Shown: positions 521 through 21,099 of the stretch, piece by piece
Position numbering within the stretch: the first letter of the stretch is position 1
Layout: the number at the start of each line of letters is the position of its first letter
NCBI GenBank assembly: GCA_963662715.1
Contig: OY759724.1
Span: forward strand, 2,910,001-2,942,000
Direction: 5' to 3'
From: Candidatus Omnitrophota bacterium
Lineage (GTDB): Bacteria > Omnitrophota > Gorgyraeia > Zapsychrales > JANLHA01
DNA length: 32,000 nt
Position numbers and translations under genes: made by a program
Notes under the pieces: generated by a model
What the model was told of the DNA's origin: nothing
What the model saw: the letters and a program-made list of their open reading frames with translations, nothing else
Database searches by the model: none

Positions 521-2041
521 ATGAAGATAGCCTTTGTTAATGATTGGAGTCAGCAGATCGCCCTGCAGTATATCTTTGCCGTTTTAAAGAAACACGGCTA
601 TGACGTGAAGCTTTTTACGGAACCCAACTTGTTTGACGATATATGGATTTCCATCCCTCCCCTGCATAAGATCCTGGATTTTCGCGAAGAAGTGGTCAGG
701 AAACTTAAATTATATAATCCGGATTTGATCGGGATATCGGCCACAACGCGTACTTATGACTGGGCCTGTTATGTTGCCGAATCCATTAAGAAACACATGG
801 ACGTGCCGATTATCGCCGGTGGCCTGCATCCCACGTTTGTCCCGGAAAGAGTCATCGAAAACCCCTGTTATGATATGCTCTGTGTCGGGGAGGGGGAGTA
901 TCCTCTGCTGGAGCTCGTGCATAGCATGGAAAAGGGAACTGTGGATTATTCCATAAAAAACATCTGGTTTAAAAAAGACGGAAAAGTTATAAAGAATGAT
1001 ATCCGGCCGCTTATTGAAGATATCGATTCCATCCCTAACCCGGACATGGATGTCTACCTGGACAGCTATTCCTATCATACAAATTCTTACGTTATGAGCA
1101 CCCTTCGCGGTTGTCCTTTTTCTTGCAGTTACTGTTGCACATCGTATTATCATCAGCTGTATAAACTCAAAGGCCCGAGATTCCGCGTGCGAAGTGTCGA
1201 GAACGTCATTAAGGAACTGCTGGAAGTCAAAAGATTAAATAAGCGAACGCGGAAAATCATGTTTAACGACACCTGCTTCGGTTTTAACATCAAGTGGTTA
1301 AAAGAGTTCTCGAAGGAATATGCCCAAAAAATCAACATAGGCTTTTTTTGTGTCATGCACCCGGCGAGCATTACGGAAGAATCCATCGGATATTTAAAAG
1401 CCGCCAGATGCAGATGCGTGTCTTTGGGCATGCAGTCCTGGGAGGAAGACGTGCGGGTGAATTTGTATAATAGGCGGGTCAGCAATGAAGTCATGGAAAG
1501 GGCTGTTCAGCTCATTAAAAAAGCAAAGATGGAAGTGCTGTTGGACAATATTTACGGCCATCCCGGCTCGGATCCGGAAAAGTATATCCAATCGCTCGAC
1601 TTTTATACGCGCTGCAAGCCCACACGCAATTATTTTTACCGGCTGCATCATTTCCCCAAGACGGTTTTAACGGAAAAAGCGTATGCGAACAAATGGCTGT
1701 CGCACGGCCAGTATGAAAATGCCTTAGACGGCAAAGACTTGGGCACATTAAGGTATGAACCGGCCCAGGATGGTTCCTGTGCTCCCCAGGAAAAGATATA
1801 CAAGCAGATGCAGCTGTTGTTTATCCTTATCGACCTTGTCCCGGCAAGAGTCACTTATTATATTATCAAAAAAAGATGGTACAGGTTTTTCCCGGCATTC
1901 TTAAACTCGGCTCTTCTGACCATATGCCGCACATTAATCTCTTTTGACTTGGAGTCCTGCTACTTCCGTTCTATCATGTTTACCAGGTATTTTTATTTTA
2001 TAAAAAGGAAAATTTTAAGCCATTTAAGACTGAAAAAATGA
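521..2041 (+). CDS. B12-binding domain-containing (class B) radical SAM protein, substrate unknown
   Basis: The N-terminal cobalamin-binding-domain pattern is present (MKIAF..., PDLIGIS, VPIIAGGLHPT). The radical SAM cluster motif CxxxCxxC occurs in 'RGCPFSCSYCC'. The C-terminal tail is basic and hydrophobic. An ATGA overlap (2038-2041) joins it to the downstream paralogue. Confidence 0.85.
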   Translation: MKIAFVNDWSQQIALQYIFAVLKKHGYDVKLFTEPNLFDDIWISIPPLHKILDFREEVVRKLKLYNPDLIGISATTRTYDWACYVAESIKKHMDVPIIAGGLHPTFVPERVIENPCYDMLCVGEGEYPLLELVHSMEKGTVDYSIKNIWFKKDGKVIKNDIRPLIEDIDSIPNPDMDVYLDSYSYHTNSYVMSTLRGCPFSCSYCCTSYYHQLYKLKGPRFRVRSVENVIKELLEVKRLNKRTRKIMFNDTCFGFNIKWLKEFSKEYAQKINIGFFCVMHPASITEESIGYLKAARCRCVSLGMQSWEEDVRVNLYNRRVSNEVMERAVQLIKKAKMEVLLDNIYGHPGSDPEKYIQSLDFYTRCKPTRNYFYRLHHFPKTVLTEKAYANKWLSHGQYENALDGKDLGTLRYEPAQDGSCAPQEKIYKQMQLLFILIDLVPARVTYYIIKKRWYRFFPAFLNSALLTICRTLISFDLESCYFRSIMFTRYFYFIKRKILSHLRLKK

Positions 2042-3552
2042 AAATAGCTTTTATATCCGGCTCTTGTCAGACTTTGGGAATACAGTATATCTCCGCTGTC
2101 CTGAAGGCCGGTGGCCATCAGACAAAACTGTTCATGGATCCCCAGCTTTTTAATGACAGTTTTTTGTCCATAAATTTTTTGAGCCGGATGTTTGACCAGA
2201 AAAAAGAAATCGTAGCGCAATTGAAGGCTTATGCCCCCGACCTGATCGCCATTTCCGTTATCACAGATTTTTATCAATGGGCTTCGGGCATGGCGCGTAT
2301 GATCAAGCAGGAGATGGATGTGCCGATCATCCTGGGCGGCATTCACCCGACTTCGGTTCCGGAAAGGGTCATGAAAAATCCTTTGGTTGACATGATTTGT
2401 CTGGGGGAAGGGGAATATGCCATGCTGGAACTTGTCAATAGCATGGCCAAAGGGTGTATCGATTGTTCGATCCCGAACATCTGGTTTAAAAAGGACGGGA
2501 AAATTATAAAGAATGATATCCGCCCTCTTATAGAGGATATTGATTCTCTGCCTTTGCCGGATAAAGACCTTTACTACGAAGACAGCCCCAAGTTTGTTAA
2601 AGCTTATCCTTATCTGATAGCAACGGACCGCGGCTGTCCCTGTTCTTGCAGCTATTGTTGCCATTCCTACCTGAAGCCCTTTTATAAAGGAAAAGGGAGA
2701 TATTTCCGCCAACGCAGTGTTGAAAATGTTATGCGAGAACTGAAAGCGAGCAAGGCGAAATATCATATGAAACATATCGAATTTGTTGATGATTCTTTCG
2801 GACATAATATTGAGTGGCTGAAGCAGTTTTCCTCGGAATATCACAAGCACATCGGGATAAAGTTTTTATGCAATATGAGTCCTATGGATATCAATGAACA
2901 GTCTATCGAATGCCTGAAATTGGCCAATTGCGCTGTCATCAGTATGGGACTTCAATCGTGGGACAAGTCTATCAGGGAAAGAGTTTTTAACAGAAAGATT
3001 CCTAACGAAGTTATGGAGAATGCTATTTCCCTGATTAAAAAGGCTAACATTGCTCTGTCTGTCGACAACATCGTCGGGCTGCCAGAACAAAAAGAGGATG
3101 ACCTTATAGATTCGATTAAATTCTATTCGAAAATACGGCCTAACCGGATCTATTTTTTTAAGCTGCAATACTATCCCAACACTCAAATCACAAAAAGGGC
3201 AAGAGAGACCGGGCTTTTTACGGATGAGGGGTATGATGACCTCCTGGAGGGGAAATGTTCGGATGTCTTTCGCATGAAGTCGCTCGTCGCCCGCAAAAGA
3301 AGGTTGAATAAAAACATGATCAGGATCAACACCCTGTTGTTCCTGATGGATTTTCTCCCCGGGGAAATGATAGACCGTATTATTGAAAAAAAGACCTATT
3401 TGTATTTCCCGACATTGTTTGACCCCTATTTTATTTTTATCATCAGAAGACTGCTGTCCGCGGACGCGGAAGCCGGATTATATAGGGAAAGCACTTTAAG
3501 CCGGTATCGATATTATATAAAAAGAAAATTTTTAAAATGGGTGGGTTTTTGA
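2038..3552 (+). CDS. B12-binding domain-containing (class B) radical SAM protein, paralogue of 521-2041
   Basis: Same architecture as the upstream gene (MKIAF..., PDLIAIS, VPIILGGIHPT, 'RGCPCSCSYCC'). It is collinear with the upstream protein along its whole length and identical at roughly half of positions by eye. The start overlaps the upstream stop. Confidence 0.85.
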   Translation: MKIAFISGSCQTLGIQYISAVLKAGGHQTKLFMDPQLFNDSFLSINFLSRMFDQKKEIVAQLKAYAPDLIAISVITDFYQWASGMARMIKQEMDVPIILGGIHPTSVPERVMKNPLVDMICLGEGEYAMLELVNSMAKGCIDCSIPNIWFKKDGKIIKNDIRPLIEDIDSLPLPDKDLYYEDSPKFVKAYPYLIATDRGCPCSCSYCCHSYLKPFYKGKGRYFRQRSVENVMRELKASKAKYHMKHIEFVDDSFGHNIEWLKQFSSEYHKHIGIKFLCNMSPMDINEQSIECLKLANCAVISMGLQSWDKSIRERVFNRKIPNEVMENAISLIKKANIALSVDNIVGLPEQKEDDLIDSIKFYSKIRPNRIYFFKLQYYPNTQITKRARETGLFTDEGYDDLLEGKCSDVFRMKSLVARKRRLNKNMIRINTLLFLMDFLPGEMIDRIIEKKTYLYFPTLFDPYFIFIIRRLLSADAEAGLYRESTLSRYRYYIKRKFLKWVGF

Positions 3553-3819
3553 GGGCATCCCGCCTCCGGCCAGCCAGGATAATGCTCAATGGCTCAATAA
3601 TCTTTTTCTCTTAAAAGTTCTCAGCCTTTGGGACGCAGTCGGAGGGAGGGGGTGCAGCATAAACGCCGTTTTTCTTAGTCAGATATTTTTTAATCTAGAA
3701 TGAGTTGTCAAGGATGTCTCCCCGGGAAGACTGTTTTTGTTCCGACGTTATTCATGCCTTCAAAAGGTCGCAAAAAATTTTAATCTTGTTTTGATTTAAA
3801 ACAATAAAAATAAAAAAGA

Positions 3820-3848
3820 TTGACATTCTAAAATTCCCCATGTAAGAT
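3820..3848 (+). promoter_or_regulatory. Sigma70-type promoter: -35 TTGACA (3820-3825), 17-nt spacer, -10 TAAGAT (3843-3848)
   Basis: Read directly. An AT-rich UP-like tract lies upstream (3795-3819). It sits about 30-60 nt before the first riboswitch aptamer. Confidence 0.6.
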
Positions 3849-3877
3849 TAATCCATTGTTTTATGTTTTTGTTCTTT

Positions 3878-4049
3878 GAGGTGTTATTCAGTACGATATA
3901 AAACCGAATAAAAAAGGGAAGTTCCGTGAGATTCGGAGGCTGTCCGGCAACGGTAATATTTACTTTTTAATTGTAAATGAGCCCGAACACTTTTTTGTTT
4001 TGGGAAGTACCTTCTGTGGAAAGGGAAGATAAAGAATCGGATACTATAG
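3878..4049 (+). promoter_or_regulatory. Cobalamin riboswitch-like aptamer, unit 1 of a tandem pair
   Basis: The core reads 'AAAAGGGAAGTTCCGTGAGATTCGGAGGCTGTCCGGCAACGGTAA' (about 3911-3956). A B12-box-like 'GAGCCCGAACAC' follows at 3979-3990. It resembles unit 2 and the cob-operon riboswitch in this window. It deviates somewhat from consensus (one C short in the CCCGC element), hence lower confidence. Confidence 0.65.
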
Positions 4050-4078
4050 CCGGCCTTTCTACAGGTCGGTTTTTTTTT
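4050..4078 (+). terminator. Intrinsic terminator (expression platform of riboswitch unit 1)
   Basis: A 7-bp stem CCGGCCT (4050-4056) / AGGTCGG (4063-4069) with one G-U pair and a 6-nt loop, followed by nine T (4070-4078). Confidence 0.75.
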
Positions 4079-4104
4079 GACATTGAATCATTTGCAACAT
4101 AAAT

Positions 4105-4264
4105 AAATCATTCAGCAGGGAATTCGGTGAGAGTCCGAAGCTGTACCCGCAACTGTAAGCTTCATCTCCTTTGAGGATATTTTAAGAGGAGTTGAAGTGA
4201 GCCAGAAAACGAAAACCTCCGGGAATAGAGGAGCTAAGCCTACCTTTGTGGAAAAGGCGTTGAA
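4105..4264 (+). promoter_or_regulatory. Cobalamin riboswitch aptamer, unit 2
   Basis: 'CAGGGAATTCGGTGAGAGTCCGAAGCTGTACCCGCAACTGTAAGC' (about 4116-4160) is a close match to the conserved cobalamin-riboswitch core (GGGAA..GGTGA.A.TCC..CTGT.CCCGCAACTGTAA). The B12 box 'GTGAGCCAGAAAAC' lies at about 4197-4210. Confidence 0.85.
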
Positions 4265-4296
4265 CCCAGCTTCTCTTTAGGAGACTGGGATTTTTT
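4265..4296 (+). terminator. Intrinsic terminator (expression platform of riboswitch unit 2)
   Basis: Stem CCCAG(CT)TCTC / GAGACTGGG (4265-4275 / 4281-4289) with a 2-nt bulge, followed by ATTTTTT. It lies 46 nt before the ATG at 4343. Confidence 0.7.
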
Positions 4297-4342
4297 ATTG
4301 AACAAACCCAAATAAATTATTTTAAGGAAAGGAGTTTTTGAA

Positions 4343-5881
4343 ATGCAGAAATTTTTAATCCCGCAGCAGTTTATTTGCATCATGGCCTTGGTCGGTTTGT
4401 TGATGCCTGGAAATGCTGTTGCCGAAAATAATTTCAGTGAATATGGTTCTAACCAGATTGGGAATATTGTTTTACCGGAAGTTGAAGCGGGATGGTTCGT
4501 TCACTTTGATGCCATAGGTGAAACAGACCAGATGATCGGGGCCTACCCGGCAAAAGGGAGGGTCCTGGCAGCCAACGGAACAAGCATTTACCTGCAAAAG
4601 AACTACGGGGCCGGAGCGCATTCAGGCGACTGGCAATGGAACGGACCTGATCAGGCTCACACCGGGAATCTTCCCGGAGGTAACGATAATTTTTTAGTTG
4701 TCGGGACTACCACTGAGACGATGGATCCCATTTTTATAAAAGTATCTCCTGACGGTAATACCGTTGCACTCGGCGTGAGCTGGACCTCGCAACTATTGTT
4801 AGTTTTTCCGATCAGCTTGTTAGACCCGGACAATCCGCCTGTGTTGGATACGCACCCGTCTGTTACCGCGTATACAATTAACTGCTATGAGGGTCAATGG
4901 GTGCCGGAAGAAGCCGGAACAGCAAACTACCGTTTAGCACTGAATGGCGGGTCTTGGCCCGGTCCTTTTGAAAGTGATGTCGCGGTGCTTGACGTTACAC
5001 AGCCCAACTCTGAAGATCTTCCCTACAATCCTGTGCCTGTTATCGGTTCTATAGGAGGAGCGAGTGCTGATATTGATTTTGATAATGACGGGAATATGAT
5101 CACAGGTTGCGGGTACGGAACAGATCCGGAAACCGGGCAAATTAAAATTTTTACCCGAACGGATTGGGAAACGGTATACGCATCCGGTGGATCAACCGCA
5201 CCGCTGGATTATGCTGCCGCAGGACACTTATTGGCAGAAAGCATTTTAAGCGCCGCGGCCATGGGTGTGGATAAAGACGATAATCTTCATGTCGGAGGCG
5301 GGGACTTTGTCGATGGCTCTGAAAATGGCTTCGCGGCCCTGGTTCACGCGGACGTTGTCGCTAGAGTATTAACCGGAGGGGATCCGGTTAATGAAGGACT
5401 TGCCAGTGAGTATAGACAGCTCCAACCGGATTATTATGGGGATGACTCAGCTACATCACCTATTGAATTCAATCTTTTGGGAGAAGGCTTGAATATCTGC
5501 TGGAATCCAACCGGTACCGGCACGCAGGGTTCCGGATCGGATTGGTGGCAGGTGGGAGTCAAACCGGTTATGACAACCTATTACGGTGTCGACGCTCCTG
5601 ATAGTGATGGTGATGATATCCCTGATACATCGGATAACGCTTACATGACCCCTAATCCTAATCAATGGGATGCGGACGAAGATTCGTTCGGCAATGCCTG
5701 CGACTGCGACCTGGATAACAATGGCTCTGTGGGATTCAATGATTACGATTTATTTGTCGCTCAGTTCGGCCAGCCGGGAGGCCCGGACCAGCCTGCTGAT
5801 TTCGACGAGTCAAGCACAGTGGGTTTTAATGACCTCGATGTATTAATTACCCGCTGGGGCCAGGAAGAGCCTTTTAAATAA
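4343..5881 (+). CDS. Secreted protein of unknown function. It has an N-terminal signal peptide, a central region with FG-GAP/propeller-like Ca-binding motifs, and a C-terminal thrombospondin type-3 repeat plus a two-segment dockerin-like module.
   Basis: RBS AGGAG lies 7 nt upstream. The signal peptide is 'ALVGLLMPGNAVA|EN'. The TSP3-like repeat is 'DSDGDDIPDTSDNAYMTPNPNQWDADEDSFGNACD'. Two EF-hand/dockerin segments are present, 'DLDNNGSVGFNDYDLFVAQFG' and 'DFDESSTVGFNDLDVLITRWG' (D-x-D-x-N/S-G/S-x-V-x-x-x-D plus helix), separated by a Pro/Gly linker. Confidence 0.8.
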   Translation: MQKFLIPQQFICIMALVGLLMPGNAVAENNFSEYGSNQIGNIVLPEVEAGWFVHFDAIGETDQMIGAYPAKGRVLAANGTSIYLQKNYGAGAHSGDWQWNGPDQAHTGNLPGGNDNFLVVGTTTETMDPIFIKVSPDGNTVALGVSWTSQLLLVFPISLLDPDNPPVLDTHPSVTAYTINCYEGQWVPEEAGTANYRLALNGGSWPGPFESDVAVLDVTQPNSEDLPYNPVPVIGSIGGASADIDFDNDGNMITGCGYGTDPETGQIKIFTRTDWETVYASGGSTAPLDYAAAGHLLAESILSAAAMGVDKDDNLHVGGGDFVDGSENGFAALVHADVVARVLTGGDPVNEGLASEYRQLQPDYYGDDSATSPIEFNLLGEGLNICWNPTGTGTQGSGSDWWQVGVKPVMTTYYGVDAPDSDGDDIPDTSDNAYMTPNPNQWDADEDSFGNACDCDLDNNGSVGFNDYDLFVAQFGQPGGPDQPADFDESSTVGFNDLDVLITRWGQEEPFK

Positions 5882-5942
5882 CACTTTTATTCACGAAGGA
5901 TGAACTGTCTAAATTATTTGTATTTTTAAGGAAGGAGAGGCA

Positions 5943-8168
5943 ATGAAAAAAATTGTTCAGTTACTAACGATGCTTGTCGTATTTACCCTGTGCCTTGGCA
6001 TTCAATCCGTGTCCGCGGAAGATCCCGAAACCAATTGGCAGTTGCAACTTAAAGGGGTCGACGGAGATCTTGTTCAAGGATCATACTACTACGTGGAAGT
6101 CTGGTTTGTTTCAACGGATAATGGCGATAGCGGCACCGCCAATGACGGTGAGCAAAATCTGAACCGTTTCGGGCTTGATATTGATTATGACGAAACACGT
6201 TTGGAATCTCCGGCCATACTGTATGAATCTTATACAGATCCGAATGACCCGTTCGTTGAGATTTGGGACGGAGGTATTGTTCCGACGACTATAGAGGAAG
6301 ATACCGGGTATATAAGGGATGTGAACGGGAGTGAGCCGTTAGGCAGCAGCGGAGTATTTTTCCCTGATGACTTAAACGGAAAATTAGCCACCATCAGGTT
6401 TACGGCAAAAGTAACAGGCTCCCAGACAGACATTTTAACATGGGTTGATCCGGATATAGACGGGCTCGCCAGAATAGACGAGGTCACGTATAATCTTGAT
6501 CCGCTCATCCTTTGGAAAGACGGAACGTCTCTCAACGGCACCTATCTTCAGGAATATTACAGACTGCATCTGGGAATTAACGCCTTCGGTCAGGATGAAT
6601 TCCCGCAGGAAGTAAGCGAGCAGACATATTTCACCGGTGTGGCTTCAGCGTTGCAGGCCTTGCGTTTTTTAGGCCCGGCATATACCTGGCCGACCCAGCA
6701 GGAATTGTATGATGCGTATAATACCGGTGATGTCGGAGACGATTTCACCGCGCCTGCGTTAGAGACCTTGCTTAACGCCCTCACCTATAATAACAGCGGT
6801 TCGCCGTTTTATCGCATCTATCATTTTTCTGATTACAACGATAGCGATGAAGACACGGCTATTAAGAGAATCATTCACTGGATCGATTATGATGTCCCGA
6901 ACGCCCCGGATGAACCTAATGCGCCGGCCCATGTGCCTTTAAACGGCGCATACAACTGGATGACGGTTCGGGGGTTTGTCAGCGATATCGCTCCGACCGT
7001 AGAGGGTAATGTCTGGTCCATCCCGGAAGATGTCACGGTATACGGGCTTTGGCTCAACGACCCCAATGAGGATGGAATGGGCTACAACATCTATATGACC
7101 GGCGATGCCTTTAAGACGGCCTATGAGACTGTGGATGGAGGTCATCGCTCCGTTGTCGAGCCTCCTCTAGATGATGAAAAAATACAGAAATTTGAACAGG
7201 CTTTACCGGACATGAAAATCAATTATGTGAAAAGAAAAGCCAATAAACAACTCGCTCAGGCCATAAGATCAGATATGGAATTAACTTGGGATAAAAAAGA
7301 AGTTCTGGCCGCCAAGGAAGAATTAGATGAAACCCTTCTTCAACCTTTGGCTGAGGACGTGTTTGATCAATTCAAGTCACTAAACTGGGAAGACGTTATC
7401 CCGGAAGAATTGATGGCATCTCCTGATTTTAACAGCCTTTATTCAGAAACACCCTTTGCCTTGCCCATGACTGTCTTGAATGAGGAGAGTGCTACTGTCT
7501 ACACCCTCGTGCTTTTTGGCAAAGAACGGCCGCGCATGATCAGGAAATTGTATAAGGCCTATGCGGCCGTTGTGGTCGATGAAGAAGGCGTATTCCAGGA
7601 AGCATCCTGGACAACCTCCGGGGACACCTATCTTACGGAACGGGGAGCTTTGCATCTGGCCAAAAAAGCGCTGAAAGAAAACTACTTCAAAGAATTAAAA
7701 ATTTGGAAACGTTTATCAGGATCCCGCCGCTGGGACGTTGATATCGTCTTTCATCCGGAACTCAGCGGCAGTGTTTTTCTCCCGGTTTTTCAGGTGACTT
7801 CGCCTTTCGGCCCCGTTGTTTATGTGACACAGGATGGGGAAACGCAGATTGAAGGGGATGTCGATCCGGAGTTGAGAAAGGCGCTGCGGATAACGGCAGC
7901 CAAAAGAATAAAAAAAGCTGTTCTTGAAGAGACGACAAATAAGAAAGAAGACTTTCGGCAAGACGCTTTAGCACGTCTGCCTGTCATCAGCGTTGATGTC
8001 TCAGAACAGGACAATACTGTCGGTGTCCGTATTGACCCGGAAGATGCCAAAAAAACAAAAGAAATTATTGAAAGGGTTGCCGAACTCTACAAAGAAAAGA
8101 CCAATGCCGATGTTGTCACTGTCGTGCATTATGTCGGAGGTAAAATTTTCAGTCGATCGACTCATTAA
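5943..8168 (+). CDS. Secreted protein of unknown function with an N-terminal cohesin-like domain and a K/E-rich C-terminal region
   Basis: RBS GGAGAGG is present. The signal peptide is 'FTLCLGIQSVSA|ED'. Residues about 30-170 follow the cohesin pattern: 'GSYYYVEVWF', 'FGLDIDYDETRLES', 'GKLATIRFTAKVTG'. The rest is unassigned. The domain call is by eye only. Confidence 0.75.
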   Translation: MKKIVQLLTMLVVFTLCLGIQSVSAEDPETNWQLQLKGVDGDLVQGSYYYVEVWFVSTDNGDSGTANDGEQNLNRFGLDIDYDETRLESPAILYESYTDPNDPFVEIWDGGIVPTTIEEDTGYIRDVNGSEPLGSSGVFFPDDLNGKLATIRFTAKVTGSQTDILTWVDPDIDGLARIDEVTYNLDPLILWKDGTSLNGTYLQEYYRLHLGINAFGQDEFPQEVSEQTYFTGVASALQALRFLGPAYTWPTQQELYDAYNTGDVGDDFTAPALETLLNALTYNNSGSPFYRIYHFSDYNDSDEDTAIKRIIHWIDYDVPNAPDEPNAPAHVPLNGAYNWMTVRGFVSDIAPTVEGNVWSIPEDVTVYGLWLNDPNEDGMGYNIYMTGDAFKTAYETVDGGHRSVVEPPLDDEKIQKFEQALPDMKINYVKRKANKQLAQAIRSDMELTWDKKEVLAAKEELDETLLQPLAEDVFDQFKSLNWEDVIPEELMASPDFNSLYSETPFALPMTVLNEESATVYTLVLFGKERPRMIRKLYKAYAAVVVDEEGVFQEASWTTSGDTYLTERGALHLAKKALKENYFKELKIWKRLSGSRRWDVDIVFHPELSGSVFLPVFQVTSPFGPVVYVTQDGETQIEGDVDPELRKALRITAAKRIKKAVLEETTNKKEDFRQDALARLPVISVDVSEQDNTVGVRIDPEDAKKTKEIIERVAELYKEKTNADVVTVVHYVGGKIFSRSTH

Positions 8169-8197
8169 CCAGTAAATACCATTAAAAGGAGGAAATT

Positions 8198-8383
8198 ATG
8201 CAGATCAAACTCAGAAAAAAACTAAGAAGTAAAAAAGGCGCCAGCGCTGTTGAATATGCCTTGATAGCCGGTTTGGTTTCTGTGGTGCTTATCGCAACGC
8301 TTGGCTCGTCAGGAACTTTCGGCACAGCGTTTACGGGTATGTTTGGCCGGCTTGCCGATGAATTAGATGCTGTTCAACCGTAA
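8198..8383 (+). CDS. flp: Flp-family type IVb/IVc pilin
   Basis: 61 aa with a basic leader, then the Flp processing motif 'G|ASAVEYALIAGLVSVVLI' (G/xxxxEY followed by a hydrophobic helix). RBS AAAGGAGG lies upstream. Confidence 0.9.
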   Translation: MQIKLRKKLRSKKGASAVEYALIAGLVSVVLIATLGSSGTFGTAFTGMFGRLADELDAVQP

Positions 8384-8811
8384 TGAAATTCTTTAATGCT
8401 TCAAAACGAACACCGTTTGGATTAGAAAGCGGGGCATCAGCCGTGGAGTTTGCGCTGGTGCTCCCTTTCTTGCTAATTGTCTTTTTTGCAATCTTTGAAA
8501 TGTCATGGCTTGTTTCGTCACAGACGATCCTCAATCACGCTGTTTTTGAAGCCGGCCGGACAGCCGCGATTGCCAAAGAAGAAGGATATTCTGATACGGA
8601 CGCGACGTCTTATGCGAAGGCAAGAGCCGTGAACTCCTATTGGATGGGGGCTCTGGACCCGGATGATGTGACGGTGAATTTTGATGAAAGCGGCTATGTC
8701 CCGCAGGTTGAAATATCCGCCCTGATGAACTATGTCCCTTTAACGGGGTGGTTTGACGCAAGCCAGCTTCCCGGCCAGATCACATCCCAGGCGGCTATGC
8801 CGTATCATTAA
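8383..8811 (+). CDS. tadE: TadE-like pseudopilin
   Basis: The N-terminus 'SGASAVEFALVLPFLLIVFFAIFE' is the TadE/TadG-like motif. It has a TAATG overlap with flp. Confidence 0.8.
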   Translation: MKFFNASKRTPFGLESGASAVEFALVLPFLLIVFFAIFEMSWLVSSQTILNHAVFEAGRTAAIAKEEGYSDTDATSYAKARAVNSYWMGALDPDDVTVNFDESGYVPQVEISALMNYVPLTGWFDASQLPGQITSQAAMPYH

Positions 8812-8829
8812 TGACAGGAAAGAAGACCA

Positions 8830-10068
8830 ATGAAAAATGTGCGAGGAATGATAGCCTTTTTGATCGCCTTGTTTTGCGGTTTGATCGCCGCGAAAATGAC
8901 ATCAAAATATCTGAGGGAACTGCAAACGCCGCAGCCGCCGCAACCGGACATTGAAATGCAGGATATAGCGCCGATGGCCCCCGGGCAGGACAAGCCATTT
9001 ACGCAATCAATCCCCCAGGGCATGCGGGCTTTGAGTATACCGGTTGATGAAGTGACCGGGGTTTCCCGGGAAGTCAACAAAGGGGATATCGTTGATGTGG
9101 TTGCTGTATCTAAAGCCTCAGCCGAATGTAAGAATAAAGACGGCCGTATCGCCCGGGTGATTTTACAGGGAATAGAGGTTTTAGCAGCGGCCGCTCAGCA
9201 GGAGGAAGAGGACAAGCCGGCGTTACAAGTCACTAAGAAAGAAAAAAAGTGGGTGGCGACTCTTCTGGTCAAAGCGGAAGAGGCCCCTCTGCTGGCAGCG
9301 GCTGACGCTTCGGCCGATTTAAGACTCGTTGTCAGAAATCCTTCTGATGACATAGCCTTGCAAGAGCCTCTTGCAAGGGGGTTCGATAAAAAACAGGGCA
9401 GCTATGTCCACCGCGACCAACGGCAGATTCCTCCTGTTGATATGAAGAAACTCGTCCGTCCGGGCATGCGCGCTTTTACCCTGATTACGGAACTGGAAGA
9501 CGGTGTTTCCGGCCGTCTGCAGCCGGGAGACAGGGTTGATGTCATTTTGACCTGCCCCTTCGGGCATTTTAGTGCCAAGGGCCATGAGGCGGGGGCCGAA
9601 GGGACGATCACATCAACCCACATGGCATCGCGTATTTTTTTGCAGGACATTGAAGTTTTGGCCGTTGATGAAAACGAAAGGCTCGTCATGCCGCCTAAGC
9701 TTTCCAATGATAACCTGAATGACGTTATGCCGACGGAAAATGCTGCGGTGACGGAAGTGGTCCGTTCCGTTGTCCTGCATCTTAGCCCGGAAGATGCCGA
9801 GTTGCTGGCGGTCGCTCATGATGCGACAGAAAAAAGTGTTATACGCCTGGTTCTTCGCCATCCGGAGGATGCCGGGATAGTCAAAACAGACGGTCAGCTG
9901 TTAATTGAGCTGTTAACGGAAAAAAAGGAGTATTCCAATGTAGAAGTTATCCGCGGGATAGAGCAAACTGCAAAGAAATTTTTTAAATACAAAAAAGGTG
10001 CGATTGCGACGCGTTCTGAAGCTTTGTTTAATCTGCCTGATGTTGATGATAGGGATGGGAACGAATGA
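8830..10068 (+). CDS. cpaB: CpaB/RcpC-like Flp pilus assembly protein with a tandemly duplicated RcpC-type domain
   Basis: An N-terminal TM anchor is followed by two similar modules. Module 1 is 'GMRALSIPVDEVTGVSREVNKGDIVDVVAV...LQGIEVLAA...LRLVVRNPSD'. Module 2 is 'GMRAFTLITELEDGVSGRLQPGDRVDVILT...LQDIEVLAVD...IRLVLRHPED'. It sits between tadE and the secretin. Confidence 0.75.
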   Translation: MKNVRGMIAFLIALFCGLIAAKMTSKYLRELQTPQPPQPDIEMQDIAPMAPGQDKPFTQSIPQGMRALSIPVDEVTGVSREVNKGDIVDVVAVSKASAECKNKDGRIARVILQGIEVLAAAAQQEEEDKPALQVTKKEKKWVATLLVKAEEAPLLAAADASADLRLVVRNPSDDIALQEPLARGFDKKQGSYVHRDQRQIPPVDMKKLVRPGMRAFTLITELEDGVSGRLQPGDRVDVILTCPFGHFSAKGHEAGAEGTITSTHMASRIFLQDIEVLAVDENERLVMPPKLSNDNLNDVMPTENAAVTEVVRSVVLHLSPEDAELLAVAHDATEKSVIRLVLRHPEDAGIVKTDGQLLIELLTEKKEYSNVEVIRGIEQTAKKFFKYKKGAIATRSEALFNLPDVDDRDGNE

Positions 10069-11708
10069 AAACATATTTCATAATACTGCTCTCTTTGATT
10101 TTTTTGTGTTGTGCGGCTGTGGCAAATGTTTCGGCGGAAGATATGGAGGACTATCGTGATGTGCGGGAGACTGTCTCACAGAAAAATCAAGGGAAGAAAA
10201 TTTCACTTGAACTAAATAAATCCTTGTTATTTCGCCTGGAAAGACCGGCTATCCGCGTATCAATTTCGGCGACAGATGTCGCAGACGTCACCCTGCTCAC
10301 CCCCCGGCAGATACTCGTTGTATCTAAGAAAATTATCGGAACGACCAATTTGATTGTCTGGTATGACGAAGAAGAGGTGGAGTCCTTTGATGTTGAGATC
10401 TTTATCCCCAACCGTTTGCTGGAGATCATTGAATCCACCATTAAAGAACACGCCCCCCGGGCCTACATCACCCTGAATATCACTCCTACAAGCATTATTA
10501 TCGACGGTTTTGTTGAAGACCAGGAAACTTTTCTTCGTGTTGAAAAAATCGTCAAAAGCTACGTCCCGAACGTCACTAATCTCATCAAAATACGGGGAAC
10601 GATTCAAAAGGCCATTAATCGGGTGACCGGAGGAGAACACGTTAAAGTCATTATGGAAAAATCAGGCCTTTTGCTGGACGGGACGGTAGACAGTCAGGCG
10701 ACTCTGATCCGGGTGCTGCAAGTGGCCCGGGGCTACTCAAAAGATGTCAATAATATGATGACCGTTAAAAGTCCGCAACAGGTTCAGCTGGAAGTCACCA
10801 TTGCCGAAGTCTCCCGCAGCGCGATCAAACAACGCGGATTAAGTTATTTGTTAAACTCTGACGGCGGCCGGCTGGGACTTTTAAAGTCAGGAGCCTTATC
10901 AGATACCAGCGATGATTCTTCCGGCAGTTATTCGATTGAAAGTGAAGGTGTTCCTGATTTGAATGATGTCGCTAGCGCTCTGTGGGGGGCACAAGTCTCT
11001 GATGTCCTGTCGGACTCGGCCGTGAATTCGGCTTATGGCTCAGCCTTCCAGATTCTGGTACAGTCTATGGATGATAACTGGCTTTCGATCATCAGTCTTT
11101 TGAAAGGTCAGGGGCTGGCGAGGACCCTCGCGACACCAACCCTGGTCGCCCTCAATGGCCAAAAAGCGAAATTTCTTGTCGGGGGAGAAATTCCTTATGT
11201 TACGGAAGAGGCGATCATTTTCCGGGAATTTGGCATTCAACTGGAATTCACGCCTTATCTTACGGGTAAAGAAAGCATGACACTTGTTGTTGAACCGACG
11301 GTGAGCTCGGTGGACTGGTCTTTTGACCCGCCGGGATTAAAGGAACGCGCCGGGTCGACAACCTTGAGCCTAAAAGACGGACAGACATTTGTGATGGCCG
11401 GGCTCATCACAGAAGAATTTTCCGAAATCAGCAATAAAATTCCATTTTTGGCTGACATCCCCGTGCTCGGTTCGCTTTTTGAAAGCAAGCAGTTCCGGAA
11501 AAGCGAATCAGAATTGATTATCGTTGTGACGCCGCGTTTAGTCCGGCCCCTGAATCGAAATGAATTAAAGAAAGTGCCTATTTTTAAACAGCCTAAAGAT
11601 ATCAATGATGAGGAATTTTTCCTCTATAAAACAAACACAGACTCGAATGTGACAGACCGTAATTCCGCTCCCCCGCAGACTGTGGGGACATTCGGGTTCG
11701 CAAGGTAA
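10065..11708 (+). CDS. cpaC: CpaC/RcpA-family outer-membrane secretin
   Basis: A signal peptide is present, with a CpaC N-terminal domain ('LELNKSLLFRLERPAIRVSISATDVADVTLL...TTNLIVW'). Two BON-like modules follow. The secretin core reads 'LATPTLVALNGQKAKFLVGGEIPY' and 'IPFLADIPVLGSLFESK...SELIIVVTPRLV'. Confidence 0.9.
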   Translation: MKTYFIILLSLIFLCCAAVANVSAEDMEDYRDVRETVSQKNQGKKISLELNKSLLFRLERPAIRVSISATDVADVTLLTPRQILVVSKKIIGTTNLIVWYDEEEVESFDVEIFIPNRLLEIIESTIKEHAPRAYITLNITPTSIIIDGFVEDQETFLRVEKIVKSYVPNVTNLIKIRGTIQKAINRVTGGEHVKVIMEKSGLLLDGTVDSQATLIRVLQVARGYSKDVNNMMTVKSPQQVQLEVTIAEVSRSAIKQRGLSYLLNSDGGRLGLLKSGALSDTSDDSSGSYSIESEGVPDLNDVASALWGAQVSDVLSDSAVNSAYGSAFQILVQSMDDNWLSIISLLKGQGLARTLATPTLVALNGQKAKFLVGGEIPYVTEEAIIFREFGIQLEFTPYLTGKESMTLVVEPTVSSVDWSFDPPGLKERAGSTTLSLKDGQTFVMAGLITEEFSEISNKIPFLADIPVLGSLFESKQFRKSESELIIVVTPRLVRPLNRNELKKVPIFKQPKDINDEEFFLYKTNTDSNVTDRNSAPPQTVGTFGFAR

Positions 11709-11711
11709 AAT

Positions 11712-12884
11712 ATGAATTACGAAGAATATCAATACGCTATTATTTCTTTGGATGAAAAATTCACGGCCCATATTAAAAGAATTCTCAATCCCGCCATAAC
11801 GGCAGATCACATTATCTCCGCCGGTTCTTTAACACGGCTGCCAGTAAGTCAAAAAACTATTGTATTATTCGATGCGCGGACGTTGAATGTCCAGTCCATG
11901 GAATGTGCCCGGCAGTTTAAAAAAAGGAAAAGGGACGCTAAATTTCTGATTATTTCGGACAACATGGATCCTCATGAGATACGAAACTGGATGAGACTGG
12001 GAGCGGTTGATTATTTGACGCCCCCTTTAGATAGTAAAGAATTGCTGAATGCCGTTCAGCGCATGGTCGATTTAGACCATTCCCAAAATTTCAACGACTC
12101 GCAGGTTATGGGGGTCTTCAGCTTGAAAGGCGGACAGGGGGTTACATCCATAGCCACCAATATGACTGACCATATCACCCGTCTCACGCATGAAAAAAAC
12201 CTGTTAATGGACCTTAATCTTTATATGGGGCATATGTCTGTTCTTTTAAATCAAAAATGCACCTATACCCCTTTTAATCTGGTCCGGGATTTGCCGCGGG
12301 CGGATGAAGACCTTCTCCTGTCTTCTATAGAAAAACACGAAAACGGGTTCCACCTTTTGGGAGTTTCAGATGAGATTGCCGATGCGGAGCAGATCAGCCG
12401 TGAAGATGTGAAATCCATGCTTCAAGTATTAAGAAAAGTTTTTAATTTTATTGTCGTTGATCTCCCGCATGACTTTTCCAACCAGACCCTGGCCGCTCTT
12501 GATGAGTCCGATAGCATTCTTCTTGTTGTTCAACAGAGCGTGCCGAGTTTGAAAAGCGCCCAAATGGCCATTCAAATATTCGGGGAACTCGGGTATCCGG
12601 ATCATAAGGTCCATGTGGTTTTAAACCGGTATCTCAGCCGTAATCCCATTCAACACGATGATATTGAGGTAGCCCTGAATAAGCCTGTGTTTATGTCTTT
12701 AGAGAATAATTATCCCGTTATGTCGGAAGTTTTTAACAGCGGTCAGACCATTCATTCATTTGAAAGGCATTCAGATATTAACATAACATTTCATCATTTT
12801 GCAGCAAAATTGATCGGTGTAAATCCGGCCTTGAAACGCATGAGAACATTAAAAAGGCTCTTTTCGAGAATTAAAGGATCATAG
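11712..12884 (+). CDS. cpaE: TadZ/CpaE: atypical receiver domain plus ParA/MinD-like ATPase
   Basis: The N-terminus is receiver-like and lacks the conserved KP lysine ('DYLTPP'). A deviant Walker A occurs in 'FSLKGGQGVTSIATN'. It sits between the secretin and tadA. Confidence 0.8.
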   Translation: MNYEEYQYAIISLDEKFTAHIKRILNPAITADHIISAGSLTRLPVSQKTIVLFDARTLNVQSMECARQFKKRKRDAKFLIISDNMDPHEIRNWMRLGAVDYLTPPLDSKELLNAVQRMVDLDHSQNFNDSQVMGVFSLKGGQGVTSIATNMTDHITRLTHEKNLLMDLNLYMGHMSVLLNQKCTYTPFNLVRDLPRADEDLLLSSIEKHENGFHLLGVSDEIADAEQISREDVKSMLQVLRKVFNFIVVDLPHDFSNQTLAALDESDSILLVVQQSVPSLKSAQMAIQIFGELGYPDHKVHVVLNRYLSRNPIQHDDIEVALNKPVFMSLENNYPVMSEVFNSGQTIHSFERHSDINITFHHFAAKLIGVNPALKRMRTLKRLFSRIKGS

Positions 12885-12889
12885 CCTTT

Positions 12890-14239
12890 ATGAGCTTAAC
12901 GGAACGTTTCCTGAGAAACCAAAAAAGTGATAAAAATTATCACAACGAGCAGTTGACAATCGATGAGGCCTCTTTTGATAAAGCCAAATTGCTTGTTCAT
13001 GAAAAGGTCGTTGAGATCATGGATTTATCCAGTATCATGGAAATGCCCCGGGAAGAGCTTGAACGGTCTGTCCGGGATATTTTGATCCAAATGCTCGAAA
13101 CCGAAAAGATCCCGCTCAACAGAGCAGAACGTTCGCGTTTGATTTCGGAATTGTTAAATGAAATCCTGGGTTTGGGCCCTATTGAACTATTGATACATGA
13201 TGAAAGCGTACAGGATATCCTTATTAACGGAAGCAAAAACGTTTATATTGAAAAACAGGGTGTCATCCATCAAACAGCCATTCATTTCCGGAATGACGAA
13301 CATTTGATGCAGGTGATTGACAAAATTGTATCCAAAGTGGGCAGACGGGTGGATGAATCCTCCCCTATGGTTGATGTCCGGCTGCCCGACGGATCGCGCG
13401 TAAATGTCATTATTCCCCCTGTTGCTTTGGATGGGCCGCAGGTATCCATTAGAAAATTCGGTGACACCCGGTTAACACAGGAAGGGTTACTACAACATCA
13501 GAGCGCTACGGCCCAAATGACGGCATACCTTCAAATGGCGCTACGCTCCAAACTGAATATCCTTATTTCGGGCGGAACAGGCAGCGGGAAGACGACGTTG
13601 TTGAATATTTTATCAGGCCATATCCCGCATAACGAAAGAATCGTAACCATCGAAGATATTGCTGAACTTAAGTTAAACCAGCCTCATGTCGTGCGGCTGG
13701 AAAGCCGCCCGGAAAACATTGAATCCAGGGGGGAGATCACATTGACAGACCTCGTTAAAAACAGCCTGCGTATGCGGCCGGACCGAATTATTGTCGGAGA
13801 GACGCGGGGGGGGGAAGTCCTGAACATGCTTCAGGCCATGAATACAGGGCATCCAGGCTCCATGAGCACAATACATGCTAATTCCCCCCGGGATGCTTTC
13901 TCCCGCATGGAAGTGATGATTGGTATGGCTCCGACCATTTTATCAGAACGGGGAGCCAAAGGTTTGATCGCCAGTGCTATTAATGTGATCGTTCAATGTT
14001 CACGTCTTGTCGACGGCTCGCGCAAGGTCATATCCATTTCCGAAGTCTGCGGGATAGAAGACGGCGAAATCATGACGCACGAAATTTTCATTTTTGAACA
14101 GCAGGGGATCAGTGAGGAGGGGCGAGTCTACGGCTGTTTTAAGCCCGTAGGTTCAACATCCATTTACAAGGAACATTTCTTGTCTAACGGCATGGAACTG
14201 CCCCCGGCCCTGTTTCATTTCCAGCAAAAGGTTCGTTGA
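12890..14239 (+). CDS. cpaF: TadA/CpaF secretion ATPase
   Basis: Walker A is '[12 protein letters not shown]', Walker B/Asp box is '[12 protein letters not shown]', and the His box is '[12 protein letters not shown]'. Confidence 0.93.
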
Positions 14240-14240
14240 A

Positions 14241-15179
14241 ATGGTTTTGTTAATAACCATCATTGTTTTTTTGACAATATTTTTTTCCGTGCTGACGGTG
14301 TATTTCCTGAAAGAGGACAATCGGCGTAAAGTTAAGAACACTTTACTTATACGATTGCTTCCGGCTGAAGAAGCCCTGCCGCATCATTTTTATCGTCTGA
14401 ATTCCCAAGTAGCGGACTCTCATGATTTTTGGTTAGCCAAGAAAATCAGGAAGCATCTGGAAATCGCCAACATGGAAATCCCGGTTAAAACTTTTATTTT
14501 TTATTGTTCTCTTATATCCGTTATAACATTAATTTTATTTTTATTCCTGACGGGGCCTTTAACGGCCTTAACAATGAGTTTATTGTCAGGAGGGCTTGGG
14601 CCTTTTTTGTACATCATGTATCGCCGGCATAAAAGAGAAAATGCCTTGGTTGCGCAGTTGCCCGATGCCGTTGATATGATCAGCCGGGGCCTTCGCTCGG
14701 GGCTGAATCTGGATGATAGTCTCAAGGAGATTGCCCGCTCCTTTTCAGACCCCATCGGACCGGAATTCAGGCGCATGTATGAAGAAATGGCGCTTGGCCT
14801 GTCCTTCGAGCAGGCTATAAGAGGTTTAGAAAGCCGTTTTGTCCGGGTACATGACGTGAAAATTCTTTGCGCGGCGTTTCTGATTCAGAGGGAAACAGGG
14901 GGGAACTTAACGTCTATTCTGGACACAATATCCAGGACGATCCGTTCCCGCCTGGTGTTTTTCCGCCAGGTACAAGCTCTGGGGACAGAAGGCCGCGTGT
15001 CGGCCTACATCCTCGGCAGCCTGCCTTTTTTGTTTGCTCTTATTACTTGGTTCATTCAGCCAGACTATATTAATCTGCTGTTTACAGAACCGGCGGGAAA
15101 AACGGCTTTAAGTTTAGCCTTGATTTTTGAGATGGCAGGATTCGCTCTTATGTACAGGATGGGAAAGGTGGAGGTATGA
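14241..15179 (+). CDS. tadB: TadB (type II secretion system F-family inner-membrane platform protein)
   Basis: Polytopic membrane protein with a T2SSF-type cytoplasmic domain ('LPDAVDMISRGLRSGLNLDDSL'), immediately after tadA. Confidence 0.85.
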   Translation: MVLLITIIVFLTIFFSVLTVYFLKEDNRRKVKNTLLIRLLPAEEALPHHFYRLNSQVADSHDFWLAKKIRKHLEIANMEIPVKTFIFYCSLISVITLILFLFLTGPLTALTMSLLSGGLGPFLYIMYRRHKRENALVAQLPDAVDMISRGLRSGLNLDDSLKEIARSFSDPIGPEFRRMYEEMALGLSFEQAIRGLESRFVRVHDVKILCAAFLIQRETGGNLTSILDTISRTIRSRLVFFRQVQALGTEGRVSAYILGSLPFLFALITWFIQPDYINLLFTEPAGKTALSLALIFEMAGFALMYRMGKVEV

Positions 15180-16081
15180 TCATAACTATTGCGGTTTTTA
15201 TCTTTATGACGGTTTTTGGCATAATTATCAGCTTGTATTATACAACCGAAATCATTCATCAGAAAAACATCTTATTCCGTCGGCTTTCGGTTGTCCGTCA
15301 TGAAAAATCAGACCATGTTTATAAAACAGCCCTGGTCAATATTTTCATGCATTTGGGCCGGCTTATTTTGCCCCAACAGAATACAGACCGGCACCTGATT
15401 TTGGAATGCCTGAAACGCACGGGATACCGTAACGAAAATGCCCTGTCATTTTTTTACGGTTTACGCATGATATCTGCTTTGGGAACGGCTTTGCTTATTC
15501 TGTTTTTTTCGATGCTCCTTCATGTGAAATCTCTGGTCGTGTGTTATGCGGGAGTACTTTTGGGGTATTATCTGCCTCTGTGGCTGTTGAAATGGAAAGA
15601 AAAACAAAGAGCCCAGACCATCTTCCGGGAATTGCCGGATGCTTTGGACATGTTTATTGTCTGCATGAATGCCGGATATAACTTTGACCGCGCATTGTTC
15701 CGGGTCAGCCAGGAACTTCGCCAGATTGCTCCTGTCTTGTCCAAAGAATTTGAACGTTATTTTTATGAAGTGGAAAGTGGATTGCCTGTCCAGGAAGCTC
15801 TCGGTAATTTAATAAACCGCAATCAGGTTGAAGAATTAACCAGTGTTGTGCAAATTTTAATGCAGTCGGCCCGCTTTGGAACGGATATCATTCATGCCCT
15901 TAAAATTCATGCCGAAAGTCTAAGAACCAAACGCCGACAGATGGCAGAACAAAAAGCGGCCAAAGTTTCGGTGAAGCTGGTTTTTCCAACGATCCTTTTT
16001 ATTATGCCCGCGATGATTTTGATCATCCTCGGGCCAACCGGAATCCGGTTTATTGAAAAATTAAAGGATTTAAAATGGTGA
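15176..16081 (+). CDS. tadC: TadC (type II secretion system F-family platform protein)
   Basis: Paralogous T2SSF architecture ('LPDALDMFIVCMNAGYNFDRAL'). It has a 4-nt overlap with tadB. Confidence 0.85.
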   Translation: MIITIAVFIFMTVFGIIISLYYTTEIIHQKNILFRRLSVVRHEKSDHVYKTALVNIFMHLGRLILPQQNTDRHLILECLKRTGYRNENALSFFYGLRMISALGTALLILFFSMLLHVKSLVVCYAGVLLGYYLPLWLLKWKEKQRAQTIFRELPDALDMFIVCMNAGYNFDRALFRVSQELRQIAPVLSKEFERYFYEVESGLPVQEALGNLINRNQVEELTSVVQILMQSARFGTDIIHALKIHAESLRTKRRQMAEQKAAKVSVKLVFPTILFIMPAMILIILGPTGIRFIEKLKDLKW

Positions 16082-16881: not shown

Positions 16882-16893
16882 AGGAGCGAAATT

Positions 16894-17193
16894 ATGACAT
16901 GCGGGACAGAACGTGGTGTTTTTATCCTACGAATATGTTTTTTTGTTTTTATTTTAAGCGGCCTGCAGGGATGCGCCCCGGTTGCTGAGGAAACATATCC
17001 TTTCGGCGAATCTTCCAAAACATTATTTGCGGCACAGGTCATCAATCCGAATGCCCCGGAAGATCCCTCCCCGGTTAATGAAATGCCCGGGCAGGTCAGT
17101 GAGCTGATCTATTATCAACGTTATATGGATGAGATGGTCACCCCGGAAGATGAAGAAGAAAAAAGCAGCGGAGGGACATGTCATAATGGATAA
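16894..17193 (+). CDS. Small acidic lipoprotein of unknown function (tad-locus accessory)
   Basis: The lipobox is 'ILSGLQGC|AP'. It is 99 aa with an acidic C-terminus and is tightly packed between the tadD-like and tadG-like genes. It may resemble the small DUF3613-type proteins of other tad loci, but that rests on recall only. Confidence 0.55.
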   Translation: MTCGTERGVFILRICFFVFILSGLQGCAPVAEETYPFGESSKTLFAAQVINPNAPEDPSPVNEMPGQVSELIYYQRYMDEMVTPEDEEEKSSGGTCHNG

Positions 17194-21082: not shown

Positions 21083-21099
21083 ATTCATCTAACAATTTG

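Follow-up and report, generated by a model that had tools for sequence, protein, structure and literature searches.

The presence of two cobalamin (vitamin B12) riboswitches in series ahead of a pilus operon raises the question of whether both of them work and what would be gained by gating such an operon twice. The leader concerned lies in a stretch of 32,000 nucleotides (nt), referred to here as the window, of contig OY759724.1 from a Candidatus Omnitrophota bacterium (assembly GCA_963662715.1, positions 2,910,001–2,942,000). The reading favored here, with a probability of roughly 0.6, is that a single transcript starting from a promoter at 3820–3848 carries two complete cobalamin riboswitches of the Cbl-II class, each acting on its own but together forming a pseudo-cooperative OFF switch. 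An initial annotation, made from the letters of the window alone, had placed two cobalamin riboswitches with their own terminators at this site, and all the elements that it listed were found where it put them or within a few bases. Coordinates are collected in Table 1.

The two units occupy an intergenic region of 790 nt (3553–4342) that contains no open reading frame (ORF) of 80 amino acids (aa) or more on either strand. An Rfam scan of the whole window at gathering thresholds returned four cobalamin-clan aptamers, all on the + strand, two of which lie in this leader. Unit 1 was matched in full (model positions 1–81; E-value of 3.9e-07 for the whole window), and unit 2 gave a local match to model positions 47–167 of 189 with an E-value of 5.3e-07. 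A permissive rescan of 3840–4345 yielded the same two matches and no other credible one. Given these E-values, and since both scores exceed the curated thresholds, the aptamer matches are not due to chance. The best family is RF01689 for unit 1 and RF00174 for unit 2. The distance between the units is 218 nt, and the variant B12 boxes described for both were recovered. In unit 1, every helix of the P3–P6 four-way junction is present in addition to the B12 box; in unit 2, P4, P5, P6 and the B12 box were aligned by Rfam, whereas P3 was not, the alignment ending at C4210. The helices differ between the units in a compensatory manner: P4 reads UUCCG/CGGAG in the first unit but UUCGG/CCGAA in the second, and P6 has CGG/CCG and CUG/CAG, respectively, at its base. 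These changes argue that both structures are being maintained.

Cobalamin riboswitches of class Cbl-I possess a P2 arm and a large P7–P11 extension, whereas those of class Cbl-II have neither (PMC7367189). Both units lack a P2 loop-stem-loop between P1 and P3, their P6 is extended by a simple hairpin only, and P7–P11 and the Cbl-I motif GCCACUG...CGGGAAGGC are absent from them. Since the Cbl-I motifs, seen in the fourth riboswitch of the window and in that of the related locus L003, are missing from both, the two units are minimal Cbl-II riboswitches in architecture, a sequence-based assignment from which neither the IIa/IIb subtype nor the preferred upper ligand can be read. The units might nevertheless sense different corrinoid forms, distinguished by their upper or lower ligands, and would then constitute a two-input NOR gate. 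Unit 1 scores best in RF01689, the family that includes the aquo- and methyl-selective Cbl-IIa RNAs, and has a bulged J1/3 at 3907–3911; unit 2 scores best in RF00174, and its J6/3 (AAAACGAAAA) differs from the AACA of unit 1. Moreover, selectivity can shift with small peripheral changes (PMC7367189). Yet the overall Cbl-II layout is common to the two units and their B12 boxes are nearly identical, selectivity is not legible in the sequence, and a broad response to corrinoids is reported for those cobalamin riboswitches that were tested (PMC9600662). A division of labor between the units is therefore considered improbable.

Each aptamer is followed by an intrinsic terminator and by a helix that excludes it. 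Terminator 1 ends in a run of nine U (4070–4078), and the tail of terminator 2 reads A-UUUUUU-A-UU (U-run at 4291–4296); the latter was missed by a simple terminator scan, probably owing to its bulge. Antiterminator 1 uses up the 5' arm and the loop of terminator 1, while antiterminator 2 pairs within the 5' arm of terminator 2, and within each platform the two states are mutually exclusive. In the first platform, the antiterminator (−17.2 kcal/mol) and the combination of a hairpin at 4011–4028 with terminator 1 (−17.5 kcal/mol) are isoenergetic. In the second, the antiterminator with its enclosed hairpin reaches −17.2 kcal/mol and the terminator state −24.2 kcal/mol. When the aptamer pairs were enforced, the probability of terminator 1 rose from 0.16 to ~1.0 (transcript from 3856) and that of terminator 2 from 0.36 to 0.95 (transcript from 4079). 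These values depend strongly on the amount of 5' context included, and thermodynamic folding is equivocal, lending weak support to switching. It neither proves nor refutes it, because riboswitches of such kind are kinetically controlled. The ribosome-binding site (RBS), GGAG, is located 8 nt before the ATG at 4343, outside both switches, and control is therefore expected to be transcriptional. As a further observation on the second platform, the direct repeat AGAGGAG occurs at 4185–4191, in the 3' strand of the unit 2 P6 extension, and at 4227–4233, in antiterminator 2. Either copy could pair with CUUCUCU in the 5' arm of terminator 2, so that a second, longer antiterminator (4183–4193 × 4267–4277) is possible.

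An L5–L13 kissing loop, which couples the aptamer to the platform, is common to all classes of cobalamin riboswitch, and L5 is the CCCG-type loop in the published nomenclature (PMC7367189). Candidate partners can be read from the sequence of both platforms, although complements of 4–5 base pairs (bp) are so short that they can arise by chance. The candidate L13 of unit 1 overlaps the inner helix of antiterminator 1. In unit 2, four G-C pairs could form between L5 and CGGG in the loop of a P13-like hairpin (4216–4231) that contributes its 3' arm to antiterminator 2. The layout of unit 2 thus appears canonical: a ligand-stabilized kissing loop would lock P13, block the antiterminator and free the terminator. 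Two other assignments were rejected or not favored. The first hairpin has a 7-nt loop (UGAGAUU in one unit, UGAGAGU in the other) that is not the kissing loop but L4, the T-loop, according to PMC7367189. An ON-switch in unit 2, in which P3 would compete with the small hairpin and free the antiterminator, is not favored, as L5 finds its natural L13 partner in the CGGG loop.

The mechanism proposed from these elements is as follows. A transcript from the promoter at 3820–3848 would carry a leader of ~490 nt with the two riboswitches, and in each platform the antiterminator helix would compete with the intrinsic terminator. With a corrinoid bound, the folded aptamer would disfavor the antiterminator, probably through the L5–L13 kissing loop, so that the terminator forms and transcription ends. 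From this arrangement, we infer both ligand binding and the OFF polarity. Polymerase would have to pass both checkpoints, and expression would be the product of two read-through probabilities, so that basal expression would be lower and B12 would shut the genes off more steeply (pseudo-cooperatively). The operon, comprising the two secreted proteins and the Flp/Tad pilus, would accordingly be made only under corrinoid scarcity.

Several observations weigh against two fully working switches. Both aptamers score only ~40 bits, far below the other riboswitches considered here (69–134 bits), and two scans of species-representative genomes revealed no close relative of the leader for covariation analysis. 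In unit 1, P1 and P3 consist almost entirely of A-U pairs. Its isolated platform folds into the antiterminator with a probability of 0.99, also if the candidate L13 is kept from pairing, and terminator 1 wins only if the leader segment 3880–3894 may pair with 4007–4045, a helix that has no comparative support. In unit 2, the match is local only, and the isolated platform favors the terminator by 7 kcal/mol, a difference large enough that this unit could terminate regardless of ligand. Furthermore, a tandem duplication of the hexamer GAAAAC directly follows its B12 box (4205–4216), making J6/3 6 nt longer and shifting CCU, the consensus strand of P3, downstream by as much. The P3 that can still form is only 3 bp long and overlaps the P13-like hairpin. 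With one GAAAAC copy looped out, CCU (4216–4218) pairs with AGG (4117–4119) to give the exact consensus P3, and the string becomes CAGAAAACCU, as in the third riboswitch of the window, which has the unduplicated form. The duplication looks like an insertion by replication slippage in the J6/3–P3 region and may have weakened or retuned the unit 2 aptamer.

These points raise the alternative that a single switch works and that the other unit is either a duplicate in decay or attenuates constitutively, possibly imposing a fixed read-through tax. Its case lies in the low scores of both units, in the local match, the 6-nt duplication at J6/3–P3 and the aptamer-independent terminator of unit 2, and in the weak A-U P1 and P3 of unit 1, whose isolated platform remains antiterminator-dominated whatever is constrained. 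Against it, both units score above the curated thresholds, their core helices are all intact and differ by compensatory changes, and each unit retains an intact terminator with a matching antiterminator as well as complementarity to L5 in its own platform. This alternative is regarded as unlikely. As for which unit would be the relic, the initial annotation had allowed for unit 1, a possibility at odds with its score above the gathering threshold; the structural doubts concern unit 2 instead.

The sigma-70-like promoter at 3820–3848 matches the consensus at 10 of 12 positions and is the only promoter-like site called by the scan between 3400 and 4700; it is presumed to be the single start of the leader, with transcription beginning near 3855. 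A perfect TTGACA, a spacing of 17–18 nt, a −10 element and then a riboswitch also occur at 21054–21082 in the window and in two related loci, L003 (115–143) and L004 (8902–8931). In this region, the generic scans were not enriched for promoters (1 site vs 2.1 ± 1.3 in shuffles) or terminators (2 sites vs 1.8 ± 1.5), and such elements count here by their placement just behind the aptamers, not by number, for that reason. The initial annotation had proposed a weak internal promoter, TTGACA-17-TAAATA. The motif is indeed present at 4077–4105 but fails the scan criteria, and no scan-grade promoter was called between the units. Were it active, the leader would consist of two promoter-riboswitch modules, with transcripts starting before unit 2 and part of the expression gated by unit 2 alone. 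The site has a perfect −35 element and a 17-nt spacing, and the predicted outer helix of unit 2 begins at 4111, 6 nt past the −10 element, resembling the spacing at 21054–21092 and in L003 and L004. However, its −10 element matches TATAAT at only three of six positions and is without the conserved T at its end, the U-run of terminator 1 supplies two of the six −35 bases, and transcripts from 3820–3848 would still meet both checkpoints. An arrangement in two modules is thus rather doubtful, and one transcript passing two checkpoints is preferred.

Downstream of the leader, the genes between 4343 and 18625 (14.3 kb) lie on one strand with gaps of at most 61 nt or overlaps, and no intergenic terminator was found within this range. 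This region corresponds to the 14-kb surface-apparatus operon that the initial annotation had described, and it contains the complete gene set of a Tad/Flp locus: Flp, TadE/F, CpaB/RcpC, secretin, TadZ, TadA, TadB, TadC, a TPR protein and TadG. The stop codon of Flp and the start codon of TadE overlap (TAATG). For the TadZ-like protein, sub-cutoff similarity to AAA_31 (26.4 bits) and to the receiver family Response_reg (21.4 bits) was seen as well. No family match for a prepilin peptidase (TadV/CpaA) was obtained among the + strand genes of 4343–21006, and this enzyme may be encoded elsewhere in the genome. A hybrid histidine kinase gene (PAS, HisKA, HATPase and receiver domains; 18817–21006) follows the Tad block after a gap of 191 nt.

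The first two genes encode secreted proteins. ORF1 has a signal-peptide-like N-terminus, a β-propeller in its AlphaFold model (predicted local distance difference test, pLDDT, of 82.6) and a C-terminus with thrombospondin-3/dockerin-like calcium-binding repeats (NCBIfam throspo3 at 419–464, E-value of 4.8e-08). It matches no Pfam family even at E ≤1, and a Foldseek search against the PDB gave only generic WD40/propeller matches (query-normalized template modeling, TM, score ≤0.38). ORF1 was also considered as a homolog of BtuG, an assignment that was rejected because neither PF16819 nor a BtuG structure was matched. ORF2 has only six homologs among 5.8 billion proteins, and its model is mediocre (pLDDT of 68). 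Its N-terminal β-sandwich gives weak matches to cohesin modules (E-values of 0.02–0.05) in a part modeled with a pLDDT of ~50–60. Judging from these models, ORF1 and ORF2 may form a surface complex of the cohesin-dockerin type.

Table 1. Features of the window discussed in the text (paired strands are joined by ×).
Feature	Position	Strand	Details
Sigma-70-like promoter	3820–3848	+	TTGACA-17-TAAGAT; 10/12 matches
Unit 1 aptamer	3901–4000	+	RF01689 (AdoCbl-II, adenosylcobalamin), 42.5 bits; gathering threshold 36.5
Unit 1 P1	3901–3906 × 3995–4000	+	
Unit 1 J1/3	3907–3911	+	Bulged, 5 nt
Unit 1 P3	3912–3916 × 3990–3994	+	
Unit 1 P4	3922–3926 × 3934–3938	+	
Unit 1 P5	3941–3943 × 3947–3949	+	
Unit 1 P6	3951–3953 × 3983–3985	+	Inserted hairpin 3957–3979 (UAUUUAC/GUAAAUG)
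Unit 1 B12 box	3979–3990	+	GAGCCCGAACAC
Antiterminator 1	4013–4024 × 4054–4065	+	12 bp; inner helix 4037–4040 × 4050–4053
Unit 1 candidate L13	4037–4041	+	UCGGA; complements L5 UCCGG (3943–3947), 5 bp (one G-U)
Terminator 1	4048–4078	+	Stem 4048–4071, 9 bp (5 G-C), 6-nt loop; −12.9 kcal/mol
Weak promoter-like motif	4077–4082, 4100–4105	+	TTGACA-17-TAAATA; overlaps U-run of terminator 1
Unit 2 aptamer and adjoining P13-like hairpin	4111–4231	+	
Unit 2 possible P3	4117–4119 × 4216–4218	+	3 bp
Unit 2 aptamer core	4119–4210	+	RF00174, 40.2 bits; gathering threshold 31.5
Unit 2 P4	4123–4127 × 4135–4139	+	
Unit 2 P5	4142–4143 × 4150–4151	+	
Unit 2 P6	4153–4155 × 4203–4205	+	Extended as one long hairpin
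Unit 2 B12 box	4199–4210	+	GAGCCAGAAAAC
Tandem hexamer duplication	4205–4210, 4211–4216	+	GAAAAC / GAAAAC
Unit 2 P13-like hairpin	4216–4219 × 4228–4231	+	Loop CGGGAAUA; −4.4 kcal/mol
Unit 2 candidate kissing pair	4220–4223 × 4146–4149	+	CGGG × L5 CCCG; 4 G-C pairs
Antiterminator 2	4227–4235 × 4268–4276	+	AGAGGAGCU × AGCUUCUCU; 9 bp
Terminator 2	4265–4296	+	Stem 4265–4289, 10 bp, one bulge, 4-nt loop; −12.9 kcal/mol
ORF1, secreted β-propeller protein	4343–5881	+	512 aa
ORF2, secreted protein of no known family	5943–8168	+	741 aa
Flp/Tad pilus genes, whole set	8198–18625	+	
Flp pilin	8198–8383	+	Pfam Flp_Fap 6.6e-14
TadE	8383–8811	+	Pfam TadE 2.5e-13
CpaB/RcpC	8830–10068	+	Pfam RcpC 6e-44
Secretin	10065–11708	+	Pfam Secretin 6.8e-39
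TadZ/CpaE-like	11712–12884	+	CBP_BcsQ 24.6 bits, above cutoff
TadA/CpaF ATPase	12890–14239	+	Pfam T2SSE 3.2e-65
TadB	14241–15179	+	Pfam T2SSF
TadC	15176–16081	+	Pfam T2SSF
TPR protein (TadD-like)	16075–16881	+	Pfam TPR
99-aa ORF	16894–17193	+	
TadG-like	17129–18625	+	Pfam Tad 1.6e-4
Third cobalamin riboswitch	21092–21226	+	RF00174, 69.3 bits; likewise without P6 extension
Fourth cobalamin riboswitch	31841–32000	+	RF00174, 77.8 bits; cut by window end

Whether the link between riboswitch and pilus extends beyond this genome can be judged from the relatives of ORF1, of which 28 were identified among the 5.8 billion proteins, the nearest with 48% identity. Including the window, 11 loci were compared. 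Two of them, L003 and L004 (ORF1 identities of 48% and 44%), keep the gene order of the window: a promoter, one Cbl-I riboswitch (133.6 and 127.8 bits, respectively), a terminator of 13–16 bp with eight T, a gene for a PEP-CTERM protein, the ORF1 homolog, an ORF2-like gene and then Flp-TadE-CpaB-secretin with further genes. The initial annotation had suggested that leaky expression of the operon is selected against when B12 is available; this argument receives indirect support from these two distant relatives, since both place a cobalamin riboswitch and a terminator before the same genes. In seven other loci (L001, L002, L007, L008, L009, L010 and L114), the ORF1 homolog shares its operon with other genes that lack annotation. 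All seven also have a gene for DUF4465, whose binding of B12 has been demonstrated (PMC13398666); this gene lies on the strand of the ORF1 homolog in six of them and on the opposite one in L010. Most of these seven loci carry cobalamin and cyclic di-GMP (c-di-GMP)-I riboswitches in tandem upstream, in either order. Tad genes adjoin the ORF1-homolog loci in L008 and L010. A further locus, L011, belongs to a Desulfobacula metagenome-assembled genome (MAG), holds the sole full-length relative from the species-representative scans and has a c-di-GMP riboswitch only.

Overall, a cobalamin riboswitch is present in the same-strand leader of eight of the 11 loci, which indicates, at the level of sequence comparison, that cobalamin control of the ORF1 propeller family and its Tad link are conserved. 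A cobalamin-cobalamin doublet was found in the window only, and riboswitch doubling is, on this comparison, specific to the genome of the window. Metagenomes were also scanned for pairs of variant B12 boxes spaced 193–223 nt apart, which returned 69 loci, none with a cobalamin core; those inspected were coding or other repeats. Among the candidates rejected, L085 and L093 contain repeated copies of a sequence with GAGCCAGAAAAC that are unrelated to riboswitches. L085 is a clustered regularly interspaced short palindromic repeat (CRISPR) array with a 37-nt repeat, GTTTCAATCCCTGTCGGGTTTTCTGGCTCGCTGCGAC, and a 73-nt period, and it is the reverse complement that contains GAGCCAGAAAAC.

Further observations on these loci concern the riboswitches and neighboring genes. 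A c-di-GMP-I or c-di-GMP-I-GGC riboswitch precedes the ORF1-family operons in L001, L002, L007, L008, L009, L011 and L114, all on Desulfobacterota-type contigs, and L008 contains two cobalamin/c-di-GMP pairs 2.5 kb apart. In L010 (15992–19748, − strand), a cobalamin riboswitch lies within the Tad cluster, ahead of AraC, TadG-like and DUF4465 genes, and this cluster adjoins btuFCD, cbiK and cbiZ.

Tandem cobalamin riboswitches are a known design. Adenosylcobalamin (AdoCbl) doublets were first noted by Sudarsan et al. 2006, and 26 are reported by Sherlock et al. 2022 (PMC9481103), under whose definition the two units of the window qualify as a tandem. According to the latter work, tandems for the same ligand are uncommon and respond more steeply, a behavior termed 'pseudo-cooperative', in agreement with the initial annotation; the aquocobalamin (AqCbl) class is among those never seen in tandem (PMC9481103). 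Like the AdoCbl doublets, the window has two complete cobalamin-clan riboswitches in one leader, each with its own terminator, and no ORF separates them; the OFF response is likewise predicted to be steeper. It differs in that unit 1 scores best in RF01689 and that the target is a pilus operon instead of B12 synthesis, transport or B12-independent isozymes. As a device, its unusual trait is the use of two minimal Cbl-II aptamers.

The same logic, with a terminator after each element, is known from thiamine pyrophosphate (TPP) riboswitches. The tandem THI-elements of Desulfovibrio, located before thiSGHFE, were the first same-ligand tandems with separate terminators (PMC545781), and Bacillus anthracis tenA is a further case (cited in PMC9481103). 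However, the ligand and the aptamer fold are different, and the target is the biosynthesis of the ligand itself. Closer in gene content are the AdoCbl/c-di-GMP-I gates of Desulfobacca acetoxidans, which occur in deltaproteobacteria-type genomes and in which a cobalamin riboswitch with its own terminator stands in tandem with a second riboswitch (PMC9481103). A link between B12 and pili has been speculated for these gates (PMC9481103), and the ORF1 homologs of L001, L007, L008, L009 and L114 lie behind the same type of pairing, whereas the second element of the window is a cobalamin aptamer and not a c-di-GMP aptamer. In the BtuB/BtuG/BtuH/BtuJ loci of Bacteroides, cobalamin riboswitches repress secreted or surface proteins, and DUF4465 corresponds to BtuJ (PMC13398666). 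Similarly, β-propeller and DUF4465 proteins co-occur in loci with ORF1 homologs. Yet ORF1 gave no match to a BtuG family or to a BtuG structure, DUF4465 genes are absent from the window, and the operon contains a Tad pilus instead of a TonB-dependent receptor. No paper linking a cobalamin riboswitch to Tad/Flp pili was found in a search that excluded most subscription journals.

The target is more unusual than the device: a Tad pilus operon with two uncharacterized secreted proteins, also present in two distant relatives. The comparative data appear to tie this operon to B12 scarcity, and the riboswitch provides direct, protein-independent evidence connecting the gene set to a metabolite, as well as a first functional handle on two unannotated protein families. 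A tentative reading of the physiological role is a previously undescribed B12-starvation response, in which the tandem switch would gate the Flp/Tad pilus, the secreted propeller with its dockerin-like tail and a cohesin-like partner for corrinoid capture or for attachment to a B12-producing partner or host. The module would then be common to an Omnitrophota-like lineage and Desulfobacterota, the latter having the propeller family next to DUF4465 and Tad genes under cobalamin and c-di-GMP riboswitches. Some uncultured bacteria may thus acquire corrinoids, or make contact with B12 producers, by means of a Tad-type machine and its cargo.

The operon forms part of an island of B12 salvage and transport genes that holds four riboswitches. 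The leader is immediately preceded by two paralogous genes for B12-binding radical SAM proteins (521–2041 and 2038–3552), and an IS200-like transposase fragment lies before these at 63–410. On the other side, the third riboswitch follows the promoter TTGACA-17-CATAAT (21054–21082), with no terminator after it, and precedes cobC-cobU-cobT-cobS-cobD-cbiB-cobQ, a PP-loop gene, btuF-btuC-btuD and btuR. It probably controls translation, because a loop GGG near the RBS complements the CCC of its L5. The best named relatives of the CobQ protein are from Candidatus Omnitrophota MAGs, with at most 64% identity. After btuR comes the fourth riboswitch, which is of the full Cbl-I type with the motifs GUCACUG...CGGGAAGGC.

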